The notes under the pieces: model-generated
What the model was told of the DNA's origin: nothing
Databases searched by the model: none
Seen by the model: the letters and a program-made list of their open reading frames with translations, nothing else
Virus record (IMG/VR): IMGVR_UViG_2622736468_000006
Location: 1-8,116 of that record
Reading direction: 5' to 3' (one strand)
Source of the DNA: a virus
Lineage: Duplodnaviria; Heunggongvirae; Uroviricota; Caudoviricetes
DNA length: 8,116 nt
Part shown: positions 1-8,116 of the stretch, in pieces
How the letters are laid out: every line of letters begins with the position of its first letter
Position numbering within the stretch: position 1 is the stretch's first letter
Position numbers and translations under genes: made by a program

Positions 1-42
1 AATGTAAGTATCATTTTTCATTGTTATATCTTTTGAATATTT

Positions 43-50
43 CTCGTTAG
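43..50. repeat. Left copy of 8-bp target site duplication CTCGTTAG flanking IS1
   Basis: CTCGTTAG at 43-50 directly abuts the IS1 end and is repeated exactly at 819-826 abutting the other end. IS1 is known to generate 8-9 bp duplications. Confidence 0.85.
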
Positions 51-65
51 GGTAATGACTCCAAC

Positions 66-569
66 TTATTGATAGTGTTTTATGTTCAGATAATGCCCGA
101 TGACCTTGTCATGCAGCTCCACCGATTTTGAGAACGACAGTGACTTCCGTCCCAGCCTTGCCAGATGTTGTCTCAGATTCAGATTATGTCGCTCAATGCG
201 CTGAGTGTAACGCTTGCTGATTACGTGCAGCTTTCCCTTCAGGCGGGATTCATACAGCGGCCAGCCATCCGTCATCCATATCACCACGTCAAAGGGTGAC
301 AGCAGGCTCATAAGACACCCCAGCGTCGCCATAGTGCGTTCACCGAATACGTGCGCAACAACCGTCTTCCGGAGCCTGTCATACGCGTAAAACAGCCAGC
401 GCTGGCGCGATTTAGCCCCGACATAGCCCCACTGTTCGTCCATTTCCGCGCAGACGATGACGTCACTGCCCGGCTGTATGCGCGAGGTTACCGACTGCGG
501 CCTGAGTTTTTTAAGTGACGTAAAATCGTGTTGAGGCCAACGCCCATAATGCGGGCTGTTGCCCGGCAT
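66..569 (-). CDS. insB: IS1 InsB frame, the catalytic part of InsAB' transposase reached by a -1 frameshift from insA
   Basis: The 167-aa translation matches canonical IS1 InsB and overlaps the insA 3' end in the -1 frame. Confidence 0.95.
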
Positions 570-763
570 CCAACGCCATTCATGGCCATATCAATGATTT
601 TCTGGTGCGTACCGGGTTGAGAAGCGGTGTAAGTGAACTGCAGTTGCCATGTTTTACGGCAGTGAGAGCAGAGATAGCGCTGATGTCCGGCGGTGCTTTT
701 GCCGTTACGCACCACCCCGTCAGTAGCTGAACAGGAGGGACAGCTGATAGAAACAGAAGCCAC
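488..763 (-). CDS. insA: IS1 InsA, the transposition inhibitor / DNA-binding N-terminal part of the InsAB' transposase
   Basis: The 91-aa translation ([32 protein letters not shown]...) is the canonical InsA with its zinc-finger-like CxxC...CxxC and HTH. The start codon is GTG on the minus strand. Confidence 0.95.
506..514 (-). other. IS1 programmed -1 ribosomal frameshift motif (A6C slippery run) in the insA/insB overlap
   Basis: Plus strand reads GTTTTTTAA, i.e. TTAAAAAAC on the coding strand, inside the insA-insB overlap. This is the known IS1 frameshift site. Confidence 0.85.
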
Positions 764-818
764 TGGAGCACCTCAAAAACACCATCATACACTAAATCAG
801 TAAGTTGGCAGCATCACC

Positions 819-826
819 CTCGTTAG
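819..826. repeat. Right copy of 8-bp target site duplication CTCGTTAG flanking IS1
   Basis: Exact repeat of 43-50 immediately outside the IS1 terminus. Confidence 0.85.
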
Positions 827-1066
827 CCCGCGCCCAATCTGGAATTACGGGCTTTCTACACCATCCATATGGTCATCACAGATCCATTAGCCGATCCACA
901 TAAAGTTTAAATTTACTATATTTATCATGATATTATCGACAACCCCACCCTCCCTCTAGATCCTTTTTACTGAAAAAAAGTGAAATCCCTTTCATTCATT
1001 TCAGTTTATATTCTCCGCAAAGCCGCCAGTACTGGCGCGGGCTGGCGATATGTTTTGAAGAAAAAT

Positions 1067-2239
1067 TTAACTGAAAAATTTTATCGATCCAGAAACCGCA
1101 GGCGGGTGCGGTGTAGTGCCGTTTTTGTCTGCGAAAGATTTATTTTGTCTGCATGTGGCTACCTCAGAGCGTCGCTGTGAATTTGATCTTATTGCGGTGT
1201 CGCAGTGGTTATCCTGCGGCGTACATCCATCCCATTGCGATACAAAGCCACCTTTGCTGTGTACTGCGTGGAAACGTGATGGCGCAGTGATGGTGTAAAA
1301 CTCACCGGCCAGCCCTTCTTCATTGGCCATATCTTCAAACCCTCGCATTCTTACCATTAGTTCACATCGACGGATCGCCGGATTTGCAACGCTGCGGTGC
1401 ACCATGCTGTCCAGTGCAATGCGCAGCCCCTCATCATTCAGCAGTTCAAACTTTTTAAAGAACTCCAGATTCCGCTTTTTCTGGTCTATCCATTCACCCA
1501 GTGTTTTGCGGGATACATAAGCGCTGGCCGCTTTTTGTACCTGTCCCACCGCGATGGCCATATGTTCGCGCTGTGTATCACGCGCACGTTTAAGACGCAG
1601 GTACCACCATTCCGGCGCCATCATGCGCAGTATCCCTGATTCCGCCTTACGCATTTCCAGTTGGCCTTCATTTGCTTCGTGTTCAACCCAGTACGGCGGC
1701 TGGTTATTCAGCATCAGGCAACACGCACAAAGATGGCGGTATGATTCCAGGGTGCGGCGGTGCAGCTCTCTGGCGTCGTCAGTGCCGGAATCAAACTGTT
1801 CGGTGAAGTCATAAAGTGACTGGGAAATCCAGCCAGATACCTGGTCAGCCAGTTTTTTAAGATCAGGACGGTCTAGTGACAGCAAGCGTTCCAGCGACTT
1901 ACCAAAAGGAAGATCAGCAGCGTCAGCGGCCAGCGAGTAACGCGCAGCCACTTTGCGCAGACGTGGCAATACACTCCCGCCGATAGTTTGGCGCAGGAAT
2001 GTATTGGCACGGCGACGCCCGTCACGACCAGCAAACAGCTTTTCGTAACGACGGCCAAAATACCCGGCTAACCAGTCGGGTATCTCATGAAGGTACTGTG
2101 AGCGCCATTCGTAATCCTGCGGGTTAACCGACCACAGGCGGCGCTCGGTGATCGTGGCGTCTGTAGGCGTACCCGGTGCGAACGTTTCACGCCGCCAGGT
2201 ATCGACGGAGTGATGTTGGCCATTGGCTACAGGAGTCAT
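1067..2239 (-). pseudogene. gpA-like rolling-circle replication initiator (P2/186 A family), N-terminal ~390 codons only; likely truncated
   Basis: ATG at 2239-2237 overlaps the dam stop as ATGA. The translation contains FYTITAPSRFHAVH, resembling rolling-circle initiator motifs 1 and 2, but no paired-tyrosine (Y..KY) catalytic motif. It ends at 1067, about half the length of characterised P2/186 A proteins (roughly 700-760 aa), and the DNA downstream (819-1066) has stops in every frame. Confidence 0.6.
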
Positions 2240-3096
2240 GCGCAAGCCATCGCTATAGAATCAAGCGGCGACTTCAGAATTAACTCTGCGGCAACTTTCT
2301 GGCTTGCAGCTGCGGCACCAACACTACGCGGGGCATTAATGCGAACGGCTTCAAATCCGGCGTACAGGTAATGCACCATTTCCAGATCGGCATTAGAGGC
2401 CACAACCGGTACACCTTTTCTGGCCAGACGGCGCAACTTACGCGCCAGCCTCCCCTGATCCATGTGCGAAAAACCGCGCTCATGGTAAGCGGTGAAATTG
2501 TCGCTTTCAGTCAGATAAGGCGGATCACAGTAAACAACGTCATTCCCGTCCCGAACCAAATCGAGCGTTTCTGAATAGTGGGCAGTAATGAACGTTGCGC
2601 GTTTTGCTTTTTCAGCAAAGGCGCGGATTTCATCAGCGGGGAAATAAGGCTTTTTGTACTTACCGAACGGGACGTTGAACTGGCCTCGACGGTTATACCG
2701 GCACAGACCATTGAAGCAGTGCCGGTTCAGGTACAGGAAACGCGCAGCAGCTTCTACAGATTCCGAACCAAAGGATTTACCTGACTGGTTGAAAGCATCC
2801 CGCACAGCATAATAGAAAACTGCGCGGCTTTCTTCATCACCTAACGAACCGGCAGTAAACAGACTTTCCAGCTCATTGAGCAGCGCATCAGTGTGATACG
2901 CCATCGCCTTATAAAGATTAACCAGATCAGGATTCACATCTGCGATCAGATACTCGTCATAATCTGTATTCATCATGACGGCGCAGGAACCTGCGAACGG
3001 TTCAACCAAGCGTTTACCTTCTGGAAGGTGCGGACGCAGCTTAGGCATAAGGCGGGCTTTGCTACCCACCCATTTAAGCGGAGTTTTAACGGCCAT
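2236..3096 (-). CDS. dam: DNA adenine methyltransferase, Dam family (orphan N6-adenine MTase, predicted GATC specificity)
   Basis: 286 aa from ATG 3096-3094, preceded by GGAGG five nt upstream. Motifs: EPFAGSCAV (SAM-binding motif I), LYLNR...NGLCRYN...[14 protein letters not shown], and the catalytic VYCDPPY (motif IV). Collinear with E. coli Dam over its whole length. Confidence 0.9.
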
Positions 3097-3415
3097 AATG
3101 ACCTCCGCCAACTAACGACTCTGTTACACCGTTTGAAATGATGTATTCCAGCACTTCAAGCGGTGACAGCGAACGGATAGATAAAACCACCCAATTTTCG
3201 GCATCAGCGATAATTTCATTCACCGGCAAAACATGGGTGATAACTGCCGCCCACTCTCGCCCGGTGTATTTCCCGTGCTTCCACTCGCACAATGAAAGAA
3301 CATCACCGGTTTTATACCCGCGATCATTTTTACGCAGCTCGGCCTTTTTCTGACCAGCCACCACAGCATTAAGGTATTTCGGCGCAATTTTTACCGCATG
3401 GATTTTGATTGTCAT
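3086..3415 (-). CDS. ASCH-domain protein (PUA-like fold, DUF3850-like), function unknown
   Basis: 109 aa from ATG 3415-3413, which overlaps the exonuclease stop as ATGA. Carries the ASCH signature GxKxxExR (AGQKKAELR) followed by NDRGYKTGD. The track start at 3466 is a TTG and was not used. Confidence 0.65.
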
Positions 3416-4008
3416 TTTGCACCGCCTTGCGCTAAAGCTTTGATGACACCTAATGTCATTTTGCAATCAGCTAAAGCACGGTGTGCCTTCCCCTCGATCA
3501 CAACTCCTTCATGCGCGGCGGCATCAACTAACTTATGCCATTTATAACCGTGATATTTCCCCGGCTCGCCACGATATTCTGCATATAGTTTCATTGCGCA
3601 AACAGAATGAGCAGCAAGCATCCATGGCGCACCTTCAGAAGGTCTTCCATTCAATGCGTAGGTCTGACGAATTAACCGGAGATCATAATCGGCGTTATAG
3701 ATAACAAAGCCAAAACGTCTAATAAGTTCTTCCACTGCGCCGCATATATCTGTCCACGCAGGAGCATAGGCAACCATTTCATTTGTGATCCCATGAATGG
3801 CAATTGCTTCATCAGGAATAGGCTTAGTAGGTTTAACAAGCGTGTTAAGCAGAATAAATCCATGGCTATCAATGATGCATATTTCTACTATTTCTGCATC
3901 ATCACCCAGCCCCGTGGTTTCGGTATCAATAAATAGGCGATCATCGTCAAGCCACTGTTGTGCTAACAGGCTGATAGAATACTGCAATTGCTTTGTATTC
4001 AATTCCAT
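3412..4008 (-). CDS. DnaQ-like 3'-5' exonuclease, DEDDh family
   Basis: 198 aa from ATG 4008-4006, with AGGAGG six nt upstream. Exo I motif FIDTETTGL, Exo [12 protein letters not shown], Exo III HRALADC. The track start at 4029 is a TTG and was not used. Confidence 0.85.
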
Positions 4009-4232
4009 GCTGCACCTCCTTTGCTGCAAATCGCCGCTGCTTCTTCGCGGATTAACTCAACGATTTCCGCTGCGCTTAAACCTTCATTGGCTGCATGAGT
4101 AGCCAGCTTATCCAGACGGGTGGAACACAGATCAGCAGTTGCGGCTTTACCTTCCTGCGTGGCTTTGGTGAGCATGGCCAGCAGGTCGGTGCCTGATTTT
4201 GTTGCGGGTAAATCCTGACGTGTCATGTGCAT
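3999..4232 (-). CDS. Hypothetical phage protein, 77 aa, Ala-rich
   Basis: ATG at 4232-4230 with GAGGA seven nt upstream. Its 3' end overlaps the exonuclease start by 10 nt. No recognisable motif. Confidence 0.5.
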   Translation of the reverse strand: MHMTRQDLPATKSGTDLLAMLTKATQEGKAATADLCSTRLDKLATHAANEGLSAAEIVELIREEAAAICSKGGAAWN

Positions 4233-4299
4233 TTTGGTTTCCTCAAGGCAAAAGAATCCCCGGCCACTTGAATCGTGGACAAAAAATTCAGGCAGTTAA

Positions 4300-4701
4300 T
4301 TAGTGAAAAGTGGGTTGTACTGTGGCGGCTGAGTAGTTCGGTGCCGGAATCAGGTGCAGCTCATAGGTTATCCGCCACCACTCCTGGATCAGCGCTTTTA
4401 TCTCGCCAACTCCCAACGCCCCGGCTGTATAGAAAATTGCACGAATCCCCGCCAGCGCTTCTATCTGGGCTTCTTTGCTTTTCGCTTCGCGATATACGCA
4501 GCACCAGAAAGCAGCATTGATCGCCAGCCAGTGACGCGGATTTGTCATGTGTTCAGTGTCGTTGAAGAAGAACGGATGCAAAGCGATACGCCCATTTTTA
4601 CTGGTGCTTTTCTCTGCAAACGCTAATGCGTAGTTATGCGGGACGCCCCACACAGCCAGCTCTGCCCCTAGTGATTTACCTTCAACCGAAATAATGGACA
4701 T
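4300..4701 (-). CDS. Hypothetical phage protein, 133 aa
   Basis: ATG at 4701-4699 overlaps the upstream stop as ATGA, with AGGGG eight nt upstream. The ORF fills the whole interval without internal stops. No family recognised from sequence alone. Confidence 0.55.
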   Translation of the reverse strand: MSIISVEGKSLGAELAVWGVPHNYALAFAEKSTSKNGRIALHPFFFNDTEHMTNPRHWLAINAAFWCCVYREAKSKEAQIEALAGIRAIFYTAGALGVGEIKALIQEWWRITYELHLIPAPNYSAATVQPTFH

Positions 4702-5129
4702 CAGTGATTCCCCTGTTGCTGTAACTTCTGGACAATATGAGGTGCAATCACCATCTGCACCCCGCTGCTGCTATAAATTGGATGAACCTTCTTGATTGGG
4801 CGGTTCGCGGTACGTTTCGAAAAATCGCTGTCACGTAAACTGCCGAAACCTTCAAACGTTAACCGCGCCCGTGAAATGCCCTGGCGCAGTTGAATCATGT
4901 CCCGATAGCCCAGGCGTTCATAAAGCTCACGCCAGCAGCACTTGCTTAAATGGGCTTTAAATGCCCCGGTACCAGAAGTAACCGCAGCAGCATGAAGTAC
5001 TACGCCGCGCCACTCCGGTGTCAAGTTGTCCCACCATTCAGCGGCCTCGCTGCTTTCGCTGAAGTATTTGCGGCGGATCTGTTTTAAATGCTCCAGCCCG
5101 CGCTTTTGCTGTTCCTGGCTAATCGCCAT
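4701..5129 (-). CDS. Hypothetical phage protein, 142 aa, basic
   Basis: ATG at 5129-5127, immediately preceded on the coding strand by a G9 homopolymer. The stop overlaps the next ATG. No family recognised. Confidence 0.55.
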   Translation of the reverse strand: MAISQEQQKRGLEHLKQIRRKYFSESSEAAEWWDNLTPEWRGVVLHAAAVTSGTGAFKAHLSKCCWRELYERLGYRDMIQLRQGISRARLTFEGFGSLRDSDFSKRTANRPIKKVHPIYSSSGVQMVIAPHIVQKLQQQGNH

Positions 5130-5133
5130 AGCG

Positions 5134-5142
5134 CCCCCCCCC
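5134..5142. repeat. Homopolymeric tract, C9 on the plus strand (G9 on the coding strand)
   Basis: Nine consecutive C at 5134-5142. On the minus strand this reads TAG-GGGGGGGG-CGCT-ATG, lying between the stop of the 57-aa ORF and the start of the 142-aa ORF. Confidence 0.9.
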
Positions 5143-5315
5143 TATAGCCCCATCAGACGACGCCACCACGGGCGACGCGGCTGCTGGCCATTGAATTTGT
5201 ACATGTGGCCAGGGTTCCAGCGCTGACCGTTCGGCAGTTCAATCCAGCCCGTTGAACCACTGGGCAATTGCATGGCCGGTGATTCGTTTTTCAGGTAAGT
5301 GACAAACGCTTTCAT
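5142..5315 (-). CDS. Small hypothetical protein, 57 aa, in the position occupied by fil-like genes in 186-type phages
   Basis: Not in the supplied track. ATG at 5315-5313 with GGGAGA upstream, directly after the cII stop. Translation: MKAFVTYLKNESPAMQLPSGSTGWIELPNGQRWNPGHMYKFNGQQPRRPWWRRLMGL. Stop is TAG at 5144-5142. Confidence 0.45.
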   Translation of the reverse strand: MKAFVTYLKNESPAMQLPSGSTGWIELPNGQRWNPGHMYKFNGQQPRRPWWRRLMGL

Positions 5316-5324
5316 GGTTCTCCC

Positions 5325-5828
5325 TCACATCAGGCCGGTGGCGTTGGTTGTGACCAGATCCACCGCAGCGGCCAAAACCGGCGCAGAGTGAATACGGCTT
5401 TCAACGGTATAAGCCAGCACGGATAAGCTACGGATTGCATCTCGGGCGCGATCCAGAATTTGAGTACGGCGGGCGGCGGTCATATGGCCAGCTGATACGG
5501 CTTCCCCAGCAATCGCGCCCACACTGGCTGTGGCGCTCAGTGCACACAGTTGTATGTTGCCTTCTGTTGCATTGTTCACCGGTACGGATGGAAGGCAGTT
5601 AATCTGCCCCAGCATCCCATCCAGTAAACGCGCATCTTCGGTGTAATCCGTGATAGCCAAAAGTTCATCACAGGTCAGGCGGTGCGGTTGCGCTGGGTTC
5701 AGTTTATTACGCAGGATCTGCGGCCTCATACCAACGGCAGCGGCCACATCTTCAAGATTGTGCTCAATTGCAAATGCTCGGCAAGCCGCATCAAAGTGCG
5801 CATGTTTAGAGGTCTGGTAATCAAACAT
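5325..5828 (-). CDS. cII: Phage regulatory protein CII (186 CII / CP76 family), lysogeny-establishment activator
   Basis: 167 aa from ATG 5828-5826, with GGGAGAGG upstream. The N-terminus (MFDYQTSKHAHFDAACRAFA...ILRNKLNPAQPH) matches my recollection of the 186 CII family. It is the second gene of the lytic operon, after the cox/apl-like gene. Confidence 0.75.
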   Translation of the reverse strand: MFDYQTSKHAHFDAACRAFAIEHNLEDVAAAVGMRPQILRNKLNPAQPHRLTCDELLAITDYTEDARLLDGMLGQINCLPSVPVNNATEGNIQLCALSATASVGAIAGEAVSAGHMTAARRTQILDRARDAIRSLSVLAYTVESRIHSAPVLAAAVDLVTTNATGLM

Positions 5829-5858
5829 TGTTTGCCTCTCCCTAATCCGTAGGATGGA

Positions 5859-6080
5859 TTACGCGTTAAGCGAAATGTCACATTCGCTTAAAGCCTGAAT
5901 AGTGAGCGCGGCCATGTTGACTTCGACCAGGCCTTTCTTCTGCTTACCCTTCGGCTTAATAGGTAATTTCCCGTATTCGATCAGGTTCCTGGCGGTTTCT
6001 TTGTTGGTACCAGTACGGCGGCAATACTCGTCTAAAGGCAGGTATGGCTCTGGGATGATGATTGTAATGTTCGGACGCAT
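5859..6080 (-). CDS. Cox/Apl-type small HTH protein (excisionase and switch regulator)
   Basis: 73 aa from ATG 6080-6078, with GGAG eight nt upstream. It is the first gene of the minus-strand operon, divergent from the repressor gene. The segment IPEPYLPLDEYCRRTGTNKETARNLIEYGKLP resembles the Cox/Apl N-terminal HTH. The track's longer version starts at a GTG at 6140. Confidence 0.6.
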   Translation of the reverse strand: MRPNITIIIPEPYLPLDEYCRRTGTNKETARNLIEYGKLPIKPKGKQKKGLVEVNMAALTIQALSECDISLNA

Positions 6081-6199
6081 GAGGCAAACTCCATAAGTTA
6101 ACCTGTACGGCAATACAGGGCTGTAACTGTCAATATTCACTTAAACCTACAAAGCGGAGTTTAAACTCACTTTGCGCAAGATTTCAAGGTAAAACTTTC
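6081..6199. promoter_or_regulatory. Lysis-lysogeny switch region between the cox/apl-like and cI-like genes; expected to hold the lytic and lysogenic promoters and their operators
   Basis: 119-bp intergenic region between divergent start codons. Contains a CTGT-N8-ACAG motif, a TTGACA hexamer on the minus strand (6133-6128), a 10-bp direct repeat and a 12-bp palindrome. Exact promoter hexamers could not be assigned with confidence. Confidence 0.6.
6103..6118. promoter_or_regulatory. Candidate LexA (SOS) box, or repressor operator: CTGTACGGCAATACAG
   Basis: Fits the LexA core CTGT-N8-ACAG with dyad-symmetric CTGTA/TACAG arms; located 23 bp upstream of the cox/apl-like start. Resembles the E. 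coli sulA box (CTGTACATCCATACAG) except in the central four positions. Confidence 0.35.
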
Positions 6200-6778
6200 G
6201 TGAACCTACAAATTGAGTTTTCTCATGGCGGAGCTGAGGTACTAGATAGAGTTATCCAAGCGTATGGATTCAACACAAAACTAGCCCTAGCCGAACATCT
6301 TGATATAGCAAGCAGCAGTCTGGCTAACCGGTATAAGAGGGATTTTTTTCCAGCTGATATCGTTGTTAGATGTATGGCTGAAACAGGAGCTACTCTGGAA
6401 TGGCTTGCGACTGGACAAGGTAGAAAGTTTAACGATGACGAATTAGACATCATGAAATTGCCACGCAAGAAGATTGTGGACGGAAAACTCTATGAGTCTG
6501 GTTTCCTAATGCTCGATAAGGTTACTTTTTTACCTGGCAAACCTTTACCGCAGAATCCTATCTGTGTGATTGATAACACAATGCAATACATTGTTGATCA
6601 ACACTTTACTGAAGTTTATGACGATGTTTGGCTTGTCGAAGTTGAAGGTAAAACCAGCGTTAGAACACTAACACGCATCCCTGTGGGAAAAGTTAGAGTA
6701 AGCGGCGTAGGTATGGCTTTTGACTGCGGTATTGACGATATAAAAATCATCGGCCGCATTGTTCTGACGATTGAATGA
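6200..6778 (+). CDS. cI: Immunity repressor, 186 CI-like (N-terminal HTH, no LexA-type peptidase domain evident)
   Basis: 192 aa from GTG 6200, the only in-frame start upstream of the HTH segment KLALAEHLDIASSSLANRYKRD. Sits directly upstream of int with its stop 1 nt before the int ATG, and divergent from the lytic operon. Length and arrangement match 186 CI. Confidence 0.75.
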   Translation: MNLQIEFSHGGAEVLDRVIQAYGFNTKLALAEHLDIASSSLANRYKRDFFPADIVVRCMAETGATLEWLATGQGRKFNDDELDIMKLPRKKIVDGKLYESGFLMLDKVTFLPGKPLPQNPICVIDNTMQYIVDQHFTEVYDDVWLVEVEGKTSVRTLTRIPVGKVRVSGVGMAFDCGIDDIKIIGRIVLTIE

Positions 6779-6779
6779 A

Positions 6780-7820
6780 ATGAGTGTTCGTAAACTTCCG
6801 ACAGGCGAATGGATCGCCGACTTCTACACCGTCAACCGTAGTAATGGTAAGAACGGGAAGCGCATACGTAAAAAATTTGCCACGAAGGGGGAAGCCCTGG
6901 CATTTGAGAACCATACGCTTCAGAAAGTAGACAATGCGCCCTGGCTGGGTGAAGGGAAGGACAAACGAACTTTAATAGACCTGATCACAATGTGGTATGA
7001 ACGCCACGGAGTAGCTTTGCGCAATGGTCAAAAGCGTAAAGACGCTATGACCTGGGCGGCAGAGTGCATGGGATTCCCGCTAGCTACAGAGTTTAATGCC
7101 CAGCTGTTCACGGCCTACCGCGCAAAAAGGCTTGATGGGCATTATGCCCGCACTAGCAGAGTATCCAAGGTTTCCCCGAAAACAATGAACCTTGAACATG
7201 CTTACTTCCTGGCTATGTTCAACGAGCTGAAACGAATCGGGGAATGGTCAGCCCCCAACCCACTGGAAAACGTCAGACAGTATCGTACTGATGAAACCGA
7301 AATGGCTTTCCTCACTGCTGAAGAAATTGAGCGGCTTTTGCTGGAATGCAAACGAAGCAAAGTAAAATACTTGGAGCTAGTCGTAAAAATCTGTCTTGCG
7401 ACCGGCGCAAGATGGAATGAAGCGGCAACGCTGAAAAGCTCTCAGATCGCAGGCGATAAAGTTACGTTCGTTAAAACCAAAGGGAAGCGCAACAGAACAA
7501 TCCCCCTTGATGATGAACTTCTATCCGAATTGCCTGAAACGAAAGGCGCTCTGTTCCCCAAACCCTGCTATAACGCGTTCCGCTCTGCTTTGGAACGCGC
7601 AGGCATTGAACTCCCCTCCGGCCAGCTTACCCATGTACTGCGCCATACATTTGCCAGCCACTTTATGATGAACGGCGGGAACATTCTGGTTCTGCAAAAA
7701 ATTCTCGGCCACGCTGACATCACTATGACAATGCGTTATGCCCATTTCGCCCCAAGCCACCTTGAAGATGCCGTGCGACTTAACCCCTTAAAATGTCGCA
7801 AAAATGTCGCGATAGCTTAG
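6780..7820 (+). CDS. int: Tyrosine recombinase / integrase, P2 Int family
   Basis: 346 aa from ATG 6780 (the track begins at TTG 6771). C-terminal catalytic signature present: LATGARWNEAA, HVLRHTFASH, LQKILGH, MRYAHFAP (catalytic Tyr). The N-terminus (MSVRKLPTGEW...GKRIRKKF) is collinear with P2 Int. Confidence 0.95.
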   Translation: MSVRKLPTGEWIADFYTVNRSNGKNGKRIRKKFATKGEALAFENHTLQKVDNAPWLGEGKDKRTLIDLITMWYERHGVALRNGQKRKDAMTWAAECMGFPLATEFNAQLFTAYRAKRLDGHYARTSRVSKVSPKTMNLEHAYFLAMFNELKRIGEWSAPNPLENVRQYRTDETEMAFLTAEEIERLLLECKRSKVKYLELVVKICLATGARWNEAATLKSSQIAGDKVTFVKTKGKRNRTIPLDDELLSELPETKGALFPKPCYNAFRSALERAGIELPSGQLTHVLRHTFASHFMMNGGNILVLQKILGHADITMTMRYAHFAPSHLEDAVRLNPLKCRKNVAIA

Positions 7821-7854
7821 AAATACTGCCGAATACTCACAGATATTAACTAAC

Positions 7855-7884
7855 GTAACTTATTGATAACACTGTAACTTATTG
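7855..7884 (+). repeat. Two 11-bp direct repeats GTAACTTATTG (7855-7865 and 7874-7884) in the attP-like region downstream of int
   Basis: Exact 11-bp direct repeats 19 bp apart, 35 bp after the int stop. An AATACT pair also occurs at 7822-7827 and 7832-7837. Consistent with arm-type Int or IHF sites. Confidence 0.4.
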
Positions 7885-7907
7885 TTTTTCGTAGATAGTT
7901 GATGCTT

Positions 7908-7929
7908 TATAATATAGCCTGTGCTATAT
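7908..7929 (+). promoter_or_regulatory. Candidate promoter -10 element (TATAAT, 7908-7913) overlapping a perfect inverted repeat ATATAGC-N4-GCTATAT (7912-7929)
   Basis: Perfect consensus -10 hexamer about 75 bp upstream of the small ORF at 7988, with only a weak -35. A 7-bp-arm perfect inverted repeat overlaps it. Confidence 0.3.
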
Positions 7930-7987
7930 CTGTATGTAATGCAATCATCCCTCAAGGATCGACGGGATTAGCAAGTCAGGAGGTCTT

Positions 7988-8116
7988 ATGAATGAGTTCA
8001 AGAGGTGTATGCGCGTGTTTAGTCATTCTCCCTTTAAAGTACGGTTAATGCTGCTCTCTATGTTGTGCGATATGGTCAACAACAAACCGCAGCAAGATAA
8101 ACCTTCCGATAAATAG
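7988..8116 (+). CDS. Small hypothetical protein, 42 aa (MNEFKRCMRVFSHSPFKVRLMLLSMLCDMVNNKPQQDKPSDK)
   Basis: ATG at 7988 preceded by AGGAGG (7978-7983, 4-nt spacer). Ends with TAG exactly at the window end. Not in the supplied track because it is under the length cutoff. Confidence 0.4.
   Translation: MNEFKRCMRVFSHSPFKVRLMLLSMLCDMVNNKPQQDKPSDK

Follow-up and report, generated by a model that had tools for sequence, protein, structure and literature searches.

What do the three small genes contribute that stand between fil and an exonuclease gene in the prophage DNA of IMG/VR record IMGVR_UViG_2622736468_000006? The window analyzed here, the whole stretch of 8,116 nucleotides (nt) from positions 1 to 8,116 of that record, carries three consecutive open reading frames (ORFs) of 142, 133 and 77 amino acids (aa), here named p142, p133 and p77, all on the minus strand at the positions at which an earlier reading of the letters without database searches (the sequence-only reading) had placed them (Table 1). 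That reading had left all three without a family and had likened them to accessory genes for host takeover, anti-defence or superinfection exclusion. The lack of a family held for direct searches with p142 and p133, whereas p77 matches DUF2732 and p142 links remotely to the replication protein B of phage P2. On balance, we favour the explanation that a P2/186-like prophage has in this region the promoter-proximal part of its early (replication) operon, in which p142 is likely a single-repeat remote homologue of B, accompanied by the orphan p133.

Neither as a single sequence nor as a profile did p142 match Pfam, NCBIfam, PADLOC or PDB sequences, its sole PHROG match was phrog_33841 (function unknown), and a profile search of 1.84 billion cluster representatives returned only 39 relatives. 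A 124-aa protein of Yersinia phage vB_YenM_324, named GpB by its authors and encoded next to a p133 homologue, fits the p142 profile at E 2.7e-14. Because the slot from fil (orf78 in P2) to the terminator is occupied by B in P2 and by dhr in 186, we searched for a link between p142 and B. With a narrow p142 profile, the comparison to an alignment of 29 gpB sequences was not significant (E 0.05); with a profile broadened by distant relatives (A4), the gpB family (A3) aligned over 73 columns at an hhalign E of 3.4e-4. The score of this alignment was 30.6 compared to ~15 for reversed profiles, and it was reached by 0 of 150 column-permuted and 0 of 150 block-shuffled versions of the gpB alignment. 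Of 13 P2/186 proteins compared with the p142 profile, namely the early genes together with P2 Orf91 and 186 orf97, B was the only one to score. The two families are also bridged by PHROG profiles: in HMMER searches gpB matched phrog_14551 (1.2e-11), phrog_602 (1.1e-9) and phrog_5349 (1.7e-5), and the p142-family members (n = 29) matched phrog_33841 (29/29), phrog_5349 (11/29, best 3.6e-10) and phrog_14551 (10/29, best 8.7e-8), with the bridging matches of both families covering the same profile region. Scans of the p142 and p133 families against Pfam, member by member, gave scattered noise only, and a match of one of the 29 p142-family members to Phage_lambda_P (E 0.2) was likewise judged to be noise.

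P2 B, listed among the replicative-helicase loaders (PMC12661323), itself appears to consist of a helical unit of ~55 aa that is duplicated in tandem: the N-terminal and C-terminal halves encoded by the P2 gene (L084, 2459-2959) align with each other at an hhalign E of 3.7e-6 and a probability of 87%, and the p142 core aligns to both halves (E 1.4e-4 and 0.012). p142 contains one such unit, alignable to either half, where the B family has two tandem copies. With the gpB-like superfamily it shares profile-profile and transitive similarity as well as the genomic position before the terminator and on the same strand as A. The AlphaFold2 (AF2) model of p142 (pLDDT 74) predicts a domain of helices that extends to about residue 108, then a disordered linker and, at the C-terminus, a helix that is conserved (GVQMVIAP...); W33, R41, L45-H46-A47 and W66 make up a conserved surface. 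The protein is basic, with an isoelectric point (pI) of 9.95 compared to a family median of 9.9. In a minimal early operon (L090), only apl, fil and a p142-type gene precede A, so that the B-like gene is the one kept directly before A.

P2 B reportedly binds the host helicase DnaB and is needed for lytic lagging-strand synthesis in the absence of DnaC, and, like lambda P, it is said to be able to inactivate DnaB. By analogy, p142 would bind host DnaB and help to place the helicase on the strand that is displaced after A has nicked the origin, and such loading could allow lagging-strand synthesis without the host loader DnaC. The homology of p142 to B is backed by comparison, and binding of DnaB by p142 would most likely follow from that homology. 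Our best guess for p133, which is translated right after p142, is that it would serve as a helper or modulator of p142 in the takeover of the host replisome. More tentatively still, and with considerable doubt, p142 and p133 might form an undescribed two-protein module for DnaB recruitment, or p133 might be a new replisome inhibitor that rides with the loader; in a two-protein module, p133 could replace the second B repeat or adapt the loader to displaced DNA coated with single-stranded DNA-binding protein (SSB) or to the A nickase.

p133 is an orphan: sequence and profile searches of Pfam, NCBIfam, PADLOC and PDB gave no match, and in PHROG it matches phrog_3935 (function unknown). Structure prediction, which the sequence-only reading had proposed for each protein, yielded AF2 models of p142 and p133, of which the latter (pLDDT 85.7, pTM 0.80) found no fold match in PDB or BFVD and the former no informative one. 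In the p133 model, a short strand, two helices and a hairpin (residues 5-40) are followed by a highly conserved, less confident loop, LHPFFFNDTEHMTNPRHWLA, and then by three long helices; a weak but recurrent match of the helical bundle to phrog_18099 (E 4e-4 to 0.045) led to another family without known function. In the IMG/VR loci surveyed, which had been found by way of p133, 80 of 80 have a p142-type gene directly before p133 and a DUF2732 gene ~70 nt downstream, and the same arrangement occurs in Yersinia phage vB_YenM_324, in Cronobacter phage ESSI-2 and in the metagenomic or genomic loci L087-L089 and L094-L099. As two lineages with p142-type genes lack p133 (L090-L092; L093), it is an optional partner, and it was seen nowhere but right behind a single-repeat B-like gene. 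A 141-aa ORF after the p142-type gene of L090 does not resemble p133 and is apparently an out-of-frame artefact, and apparent p133 matches inside the A genes of L090 and L093 are due to a chimeric protein, P0190. This protein (Serratia marcescens, 136 aa) is p133-like in its N-terminal half and matches the gpA C-terminus with its C-terminal tail; it is probably a p133-A fusion that arose by deletion in a decayed prophage.

The 67-nt spacer (4233-4299) between p133 and p77 holds a feature that neither a simple terminator scan nor folding of the single spacer sequence returned and that is visible only by comparative alignment. When aligned across 11 diverse relatives, the spacer exceeds much of the coding sequence in conservation and shows a 14-pair hairpin followed by UUCUUUUGCC, with compensatory changes at 7 of the 14 pairs. 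In the alignment 90% of cells are paired, a share that falls to 34-58% once the 3' partners are shifted by 1-3 columns, and none of 500 shuffles attained any of the observed hairpin measures. The 186 terminator tR1, the putative rho-independent terminator after P2 B and the spacer have their position in common, as well as the sequence CGGGG(A/C)TTCTTTT(T)GCC and the Shine-Dalgarno sequence and ATG of the DUF2732 gene that follow; because position, 3' half and the following translation start agree in this way, the window carries a tR1 homologue and with it a putative terminator. Its copy in the window is weak, with stem mismatches and a folding energy of -10.7 kcal/mol (z -0.7) compared to -20.2 kcal/mol (z -2.0) in the relative L056. 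According to the 186 record, tR1 is anti-terminated in lytic growth and the segment past it is reached by read-through. Since the hairpin comes after p133, p142 and p133 would fall into the pre-terminator segment together with apl, cII and fil, and they would be carried on the pre-terminator transcript as B is in P2 and dhr in 186.

p77 would then open the post-terminator segment, translationally coupled to the next gene. It fits Pfam DUF2732 (PF10809) with 46.8 bits (cut-off 25, E 3e-12) over 62 of the 75 profile positions and phrog_128 at E 1.9e-21, and in BLASTP it is 34% identical to P2 Orf80 (E 2e-7) and 32% identical to 186 CP80 (E 4e-7). Each of these is the first gene past the terminator that follows p133, B (P2) or dhr (186), respectively. 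To judge from these matches, p77 is an ordinary DUF2732 member and the counterpart of P2 Orf80 and 186 CP80, the latter described in the 186 record as 'unknown function; not essential'. Our literature searches on DUF2732 and on the RefSeq accessions gave nothing useful.

That the three ORFs are real genes under purifying selection is clear from several observations. The same three coding sequences (CDSs) are annotated by RefSeq in a 99.7% identical E. coli prophage, and in pairwise comparisons with 13 relatives the ratio of non-synonymous to synonymous substitution (dN/dS) is 0.04-0.25 for p142, 0.03-0.19 for p133 and 0.08-0.22 for p77, with cII and fil in the same range. Homologous protein clusters number 107 for p142 and 88 for p133, comprise hundreds of member sequences and come from Escherichia, Salmonella, Citrobacter, Enterobacter, Klebsiella, Cronobacter, Kosakonia, Raoultella, Serratia and other genera. 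The junctions differ in part from what the sequence-only reading had described. In place of a 4-nt ATGA overlap between p142 and p133, the junction reads cacTGATGtcc, that is, TGATG with a 1-nt overlap at base 4701, and the proposed coupling of p77 to the other two genes does not hold, as the spacer with its conserved tR1-like hairpin and U-tract separates them. The 10-nt overlap of p77 with the exonuclease gene was confirmed (the exonuclease ATG lies at 4008), and p77 is predicted to be translationally coupled to that gene. At the fil/p142 junction a run of G residues takes in the stop codon of fil as well as the p142 Shine-Dalgarno region; related loci have 5-9 G here (counting the G of the TAG stop), the 99.7% identical strain 573 has G8, and this variation may stem from slippage by which translation of p142 is tuned, or from sequencing noise. 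Scans of the region for Rfam families, tRNAs and repeats were all empty. A toxin-antitoxin reading was dropped, since the genes lie within the pR operon without a promoter of their own and neither PADLOC nor Pfam lends it support.

Are these genes backbone or cargo? The sequence-only reading had suggested a presence/absence survey of related prophages, and in the 80 relatives cII, fil, p142, p133 and p77 were all found 80 times, while the immunity genes int, cI and apl are swapped between types and the genes between p77 and A vary (an exonuclease gene in ~10 loci, ASCH in ~20, dam in most). In some relatives, the operon is pared down to fil, p142, p133, the DUF2732 gene and A. The constant presence of the three genes argues against an accessory, 'moron-like' nature, and the view of them as variable accessory cargo is not borne out, the cargo that does vary being located between p77 and A. 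PADLOC-DB models gave no match to any of the three proteins at E <= 1. As to known replication families, p142 finds a partial assignment through its link to B by profile-profile comparison, bridging PHROGs and synteny, and p133 finds none.

Several points weigh against p142 as a B-like loader with p133 as its partner. The hhalign probability of the p142-gpB alignment is only moderate (38-52%), and the p142 of the window does not itself match the bridging PHROGs at E <= 0.01. PF26815, present in all listed gpB homologues, occurs in 0 of the 107 p142 homologues, and full-length p142 homologues carry no precomputed Pfam domain. Because this match is missing and one repeat stands in place of two, p142 is not a strict member of the B family, and because of the single repeat it need not act like B. 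The p142 model is of moderate confidence and without an informative fold match, and we know of no solved structure of P2 B for comparison. Position alone is no proof of a loader role, because the same slot in 186 holds dhr, which encodes an inhibitor of host replication. p133 has no similarity to B or to any P2/186 early protein, and nothing positive ties it to replication; two p142-type lineages (L090-L092; L093) lack it. p142 alleles of ~97% and ~80% identity both accompany the same p133 allele, and therefore there is no sign of allele-specific co-evolution between the two. In addition, the early-operon genes reside here in a non-replicating remnant.

The slot that p142 and p133 occupy, between fil and tR1, is the dhr slot of 186, and one or both might be Dhr-like host-takeover factors that stop host DNA replication or another host process. 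Their upstream neighbour fil itself codes for an inhibitor of host cell division, p133 has no assignable function, and the reported inactivation of DnaB by B would make loader and inhibitor compatible roles. We nevertheless consider this explanation unlikely, as similarity to Dhr was not found (hhalign E 0.16 with the p142 profile and 0.2 with the p133 profile), the link of p142 runs to B and not to Dhr, and both genes belong to the invariant backbone, with the p142-type gene kept beside A in minimal operons. An anti-defence or superinfection-exclusion function of p133, perhaps together with p142, would suit a small early gene of a temperate phage whose product matches no PDB or BFVD fold. No tool result supports it, neither p133 nor p142 has a PADLOC match, both are constant in all relatives surveyed while the variable cargo lies elsewhere, p133 is seen only beside a B-like gene, and the exclusion genes of P2-like phages (old, tin and 186 orf97) are located at other sites and expressed from the prophage, outside the repressed pR operon. 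Such a function is in our estimate improbable, and of the three proteins only p133 might have a host-takeover or anti-defence role, for which nothing positive was found.

We regard it as more improbable still that p133 is a nucleic-acid-binding regulator, for example of read-through at the tR1-like terminator, as might be thought from the position of its gene directly upstream of this conserved element, from the anti-termination of tR1 in 186 and from the strand-helix-helix-hairpin arrangement of residues 5-40 of the model, which we read as a winged-helix-like layout. Chance frames or decayed pseudogenes of a dead prophage can be set aside almost entirely. The prophage is indeed a remnant with a truncated A, a deletion of ~23 kb and a weakened tR1-like hairpin; against this, all three frames are intact, are 97-98% identical to the closest homologue clusters and 96-99% identical to the sequenced ESSI2_ev phages, have good Shine-Dalgarno contexts and show, with hundreds of member sequences, dN/dS values of 0.03-0.25 across relatives.

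Table 1. Features of the 8,116-nt window
Feature	Coordinates	Strand	Remarks
p142	4701..5129	minus	142-aa ORF; phrog_33841, E 5.7e-41
p133	4300..4701	minus	133-aa ORF, neutral; orphan
p77	3999..4232	minus	77-aa ORF; DUF2732
Putative tR1-like hairpin with U-tract	4254-4289 (hairpin), 4250-4253 (U-tract)	minus	p133/p77 spacer; unannotated
G9 run	5134..5142	minus	spans fil stop codon and p142 Shine-Dalgarno region; TAGGGGGGGGGCGCTATG
fil	5142..5315	minus	PF10893 Phage_186_Fil, E 9.5e-10; left edge of slot
pR-like promoter	6158..6187	minus	between cI and apl; sigma-70-like, 9/12 matches; position of 186 pR
cI	6200-6778	plus	
int	6771-7820	plus	
mntS	7988-8116		next to integrated prophage
Exonuclease, DnaQ-like 3'-5'	3412..4008	minus	PF00929, E 1e-18; variable cargo 3' of p77
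ASCH/DUF3850 gene	3086-3415	minus	between exonuclease and dam
IS1 element	~52-819		

Integrated beside mntS, the window holds what is left of a P2/186-like (Peduoviridae) prophage, one of the ESSI-2 / Quadragintavirus type. Behind the pR-like promoter, the minus strand reads apl/cox-like, cII (PF06892), fil (PF10893) and the 142-aa and 133-aa ORFs, then the spacer, the 77-aa ORF, the DnaQ-type exonuclease, ASCH/DUF3850, dam and a truncated A, an order that is also that of 186 and ESSI2_ev015. The sequence-only reading had assigned the genes to the early lytic operon of a temperate phage, and this placement is upheld by synteny with 186 (int-cI / apl-cII-fil-...-A) along with the promoter-like site. 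Nearest among the records are the 99.7% identical prophage of E. coli strain 573 and two Escherichia phages of the genus Quadragintavirus, ESSI2_ev015 and ev040 (95% DNA identity); the segment was found in only 31 of 5426 complete E. coli genomes. Homology to the replication gene A ends at about base 1206 of the window, and the 392-aa 'A' ORF (1067-2245) continues into DNA without homology to A, bases 820-1205 being the far end of the intact prophage, which in E. coli LH13-b is 24.5 kb off. About 23 kb, comprising the late genes, have been deleted. Because A is truncated, the window copy cannot replicate, and the prophage is dead.

Three further observations concern the neighbouring genes. The longest apl/cox-like ORF (5859-6140, minus strand) encodes 93 aa from a GTG start and is thus longer than the 73-aa CDS that near-identical genomes have annotated; translation probably begins at the internal ATG (MRPNITII...). 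In the window, the ASCH/DUF3850 gene precedes A, and its P2 homologue Orf91 (L084, 6317-6646) lies downstream of A, an example of cargo shuffling inside the replication operon. Several IMG/VR relatives (L016, L021, L028, L030, L039 and L041) have an extra segment of ~750 nt between cII and fil, which the window lacks.

Of the classical loaders, P2 B is understood least, and the boundaries of its family have been narrow until now. The comparisons presented here widen the family, in that B appears to be an internal duplication whose single-unit version occurs, annotated as hypothetical, in a widespread lineage of enterobacterial prophages; being simpler, a single-unit B-like protein could be used for mapping the DnaB-binding determinant. 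The orphan p133, well-folded in its model, with a conserved loop at the surface and found only beside the single-unit version, lends itself to interaction tests as a concrete, inexpensive target. For prophages of E. coli, Salmonella and Enterobacter, two 'hypothetical proteins' and a putative terminator without annotation thereby join the framework of the P2/186 replication operon. What is most likely new is a single-repeat gpB-like protein with an orphan partner, the DUF2732 family being known. The three genes are mostly ordinary replication-module genes with one orphan partner, they do not constitute a new class of system, and their practical importance is modest.

Among known systems, the helicase loaders lambda P, SPP1 G39P and VdhL1/2 are likewise small phage proteins that recruit host DnaB, and p142 shares with them the layout of a globular helical domain with an extended tail; sequence or fold similarity of p142 to these loaders was not found. 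Helicase loaders are exchanged unusually often for unrelated, phage-derived genes (PMC11087808), and the small phage-encoded loaders, too, frequently give way to genes that are not related to them (PMC11087808, PMC12661323). Between p77 and its counterparts P2 Orf80 and 186 CP80 (PF10809, phrog_128), 32-34% identical and in the same position, we see no notable difference, whereas the stem of the tR1-like element is longer in the lineage of the window (~14-15 pairs, several of them G-U) than in the 186 and P2 terminators. In 186, which depends on host DnaC and unlike the window has no B-like gene, the place between fil and tR1 of a cII/fil-type operon is taken by Dhr (CP79), an inhibitor of host DNA replication of 66 aa that matches phrog_6069 only and has no detectable similarity to p142 or p133. 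The closest likeness of p142 is to P2 gpB (PF26815, phrog_235), which occupies the slot after cox/orf78 (fil in the window) and before a terminator and a DUF2732 gene, upstream of A. Both contain the common helical unit with the motif [WY]-x2-[LM]-x4-R-x2-[VLF]-x-H-A-[AG] ... R-x-I-x2-L-R-x2-F. p142 differs from gpB in having one unit rather than two, in being more basic (pI ~9.9 versus ~8.6), in its disordered linker and conserved C-terminal 'MVIAP' helix, and in usually being followed by p133, which P2 lacks. The slot thus reads orf78, B, terminator, Orf80 (DUF2732) and then A in P2; fil, dhr, tR1, CP80 (DUF2732) and then A in 186; and fil, p142, p133, the tR1-like element, p77 (DUF2732) and then A in the window.

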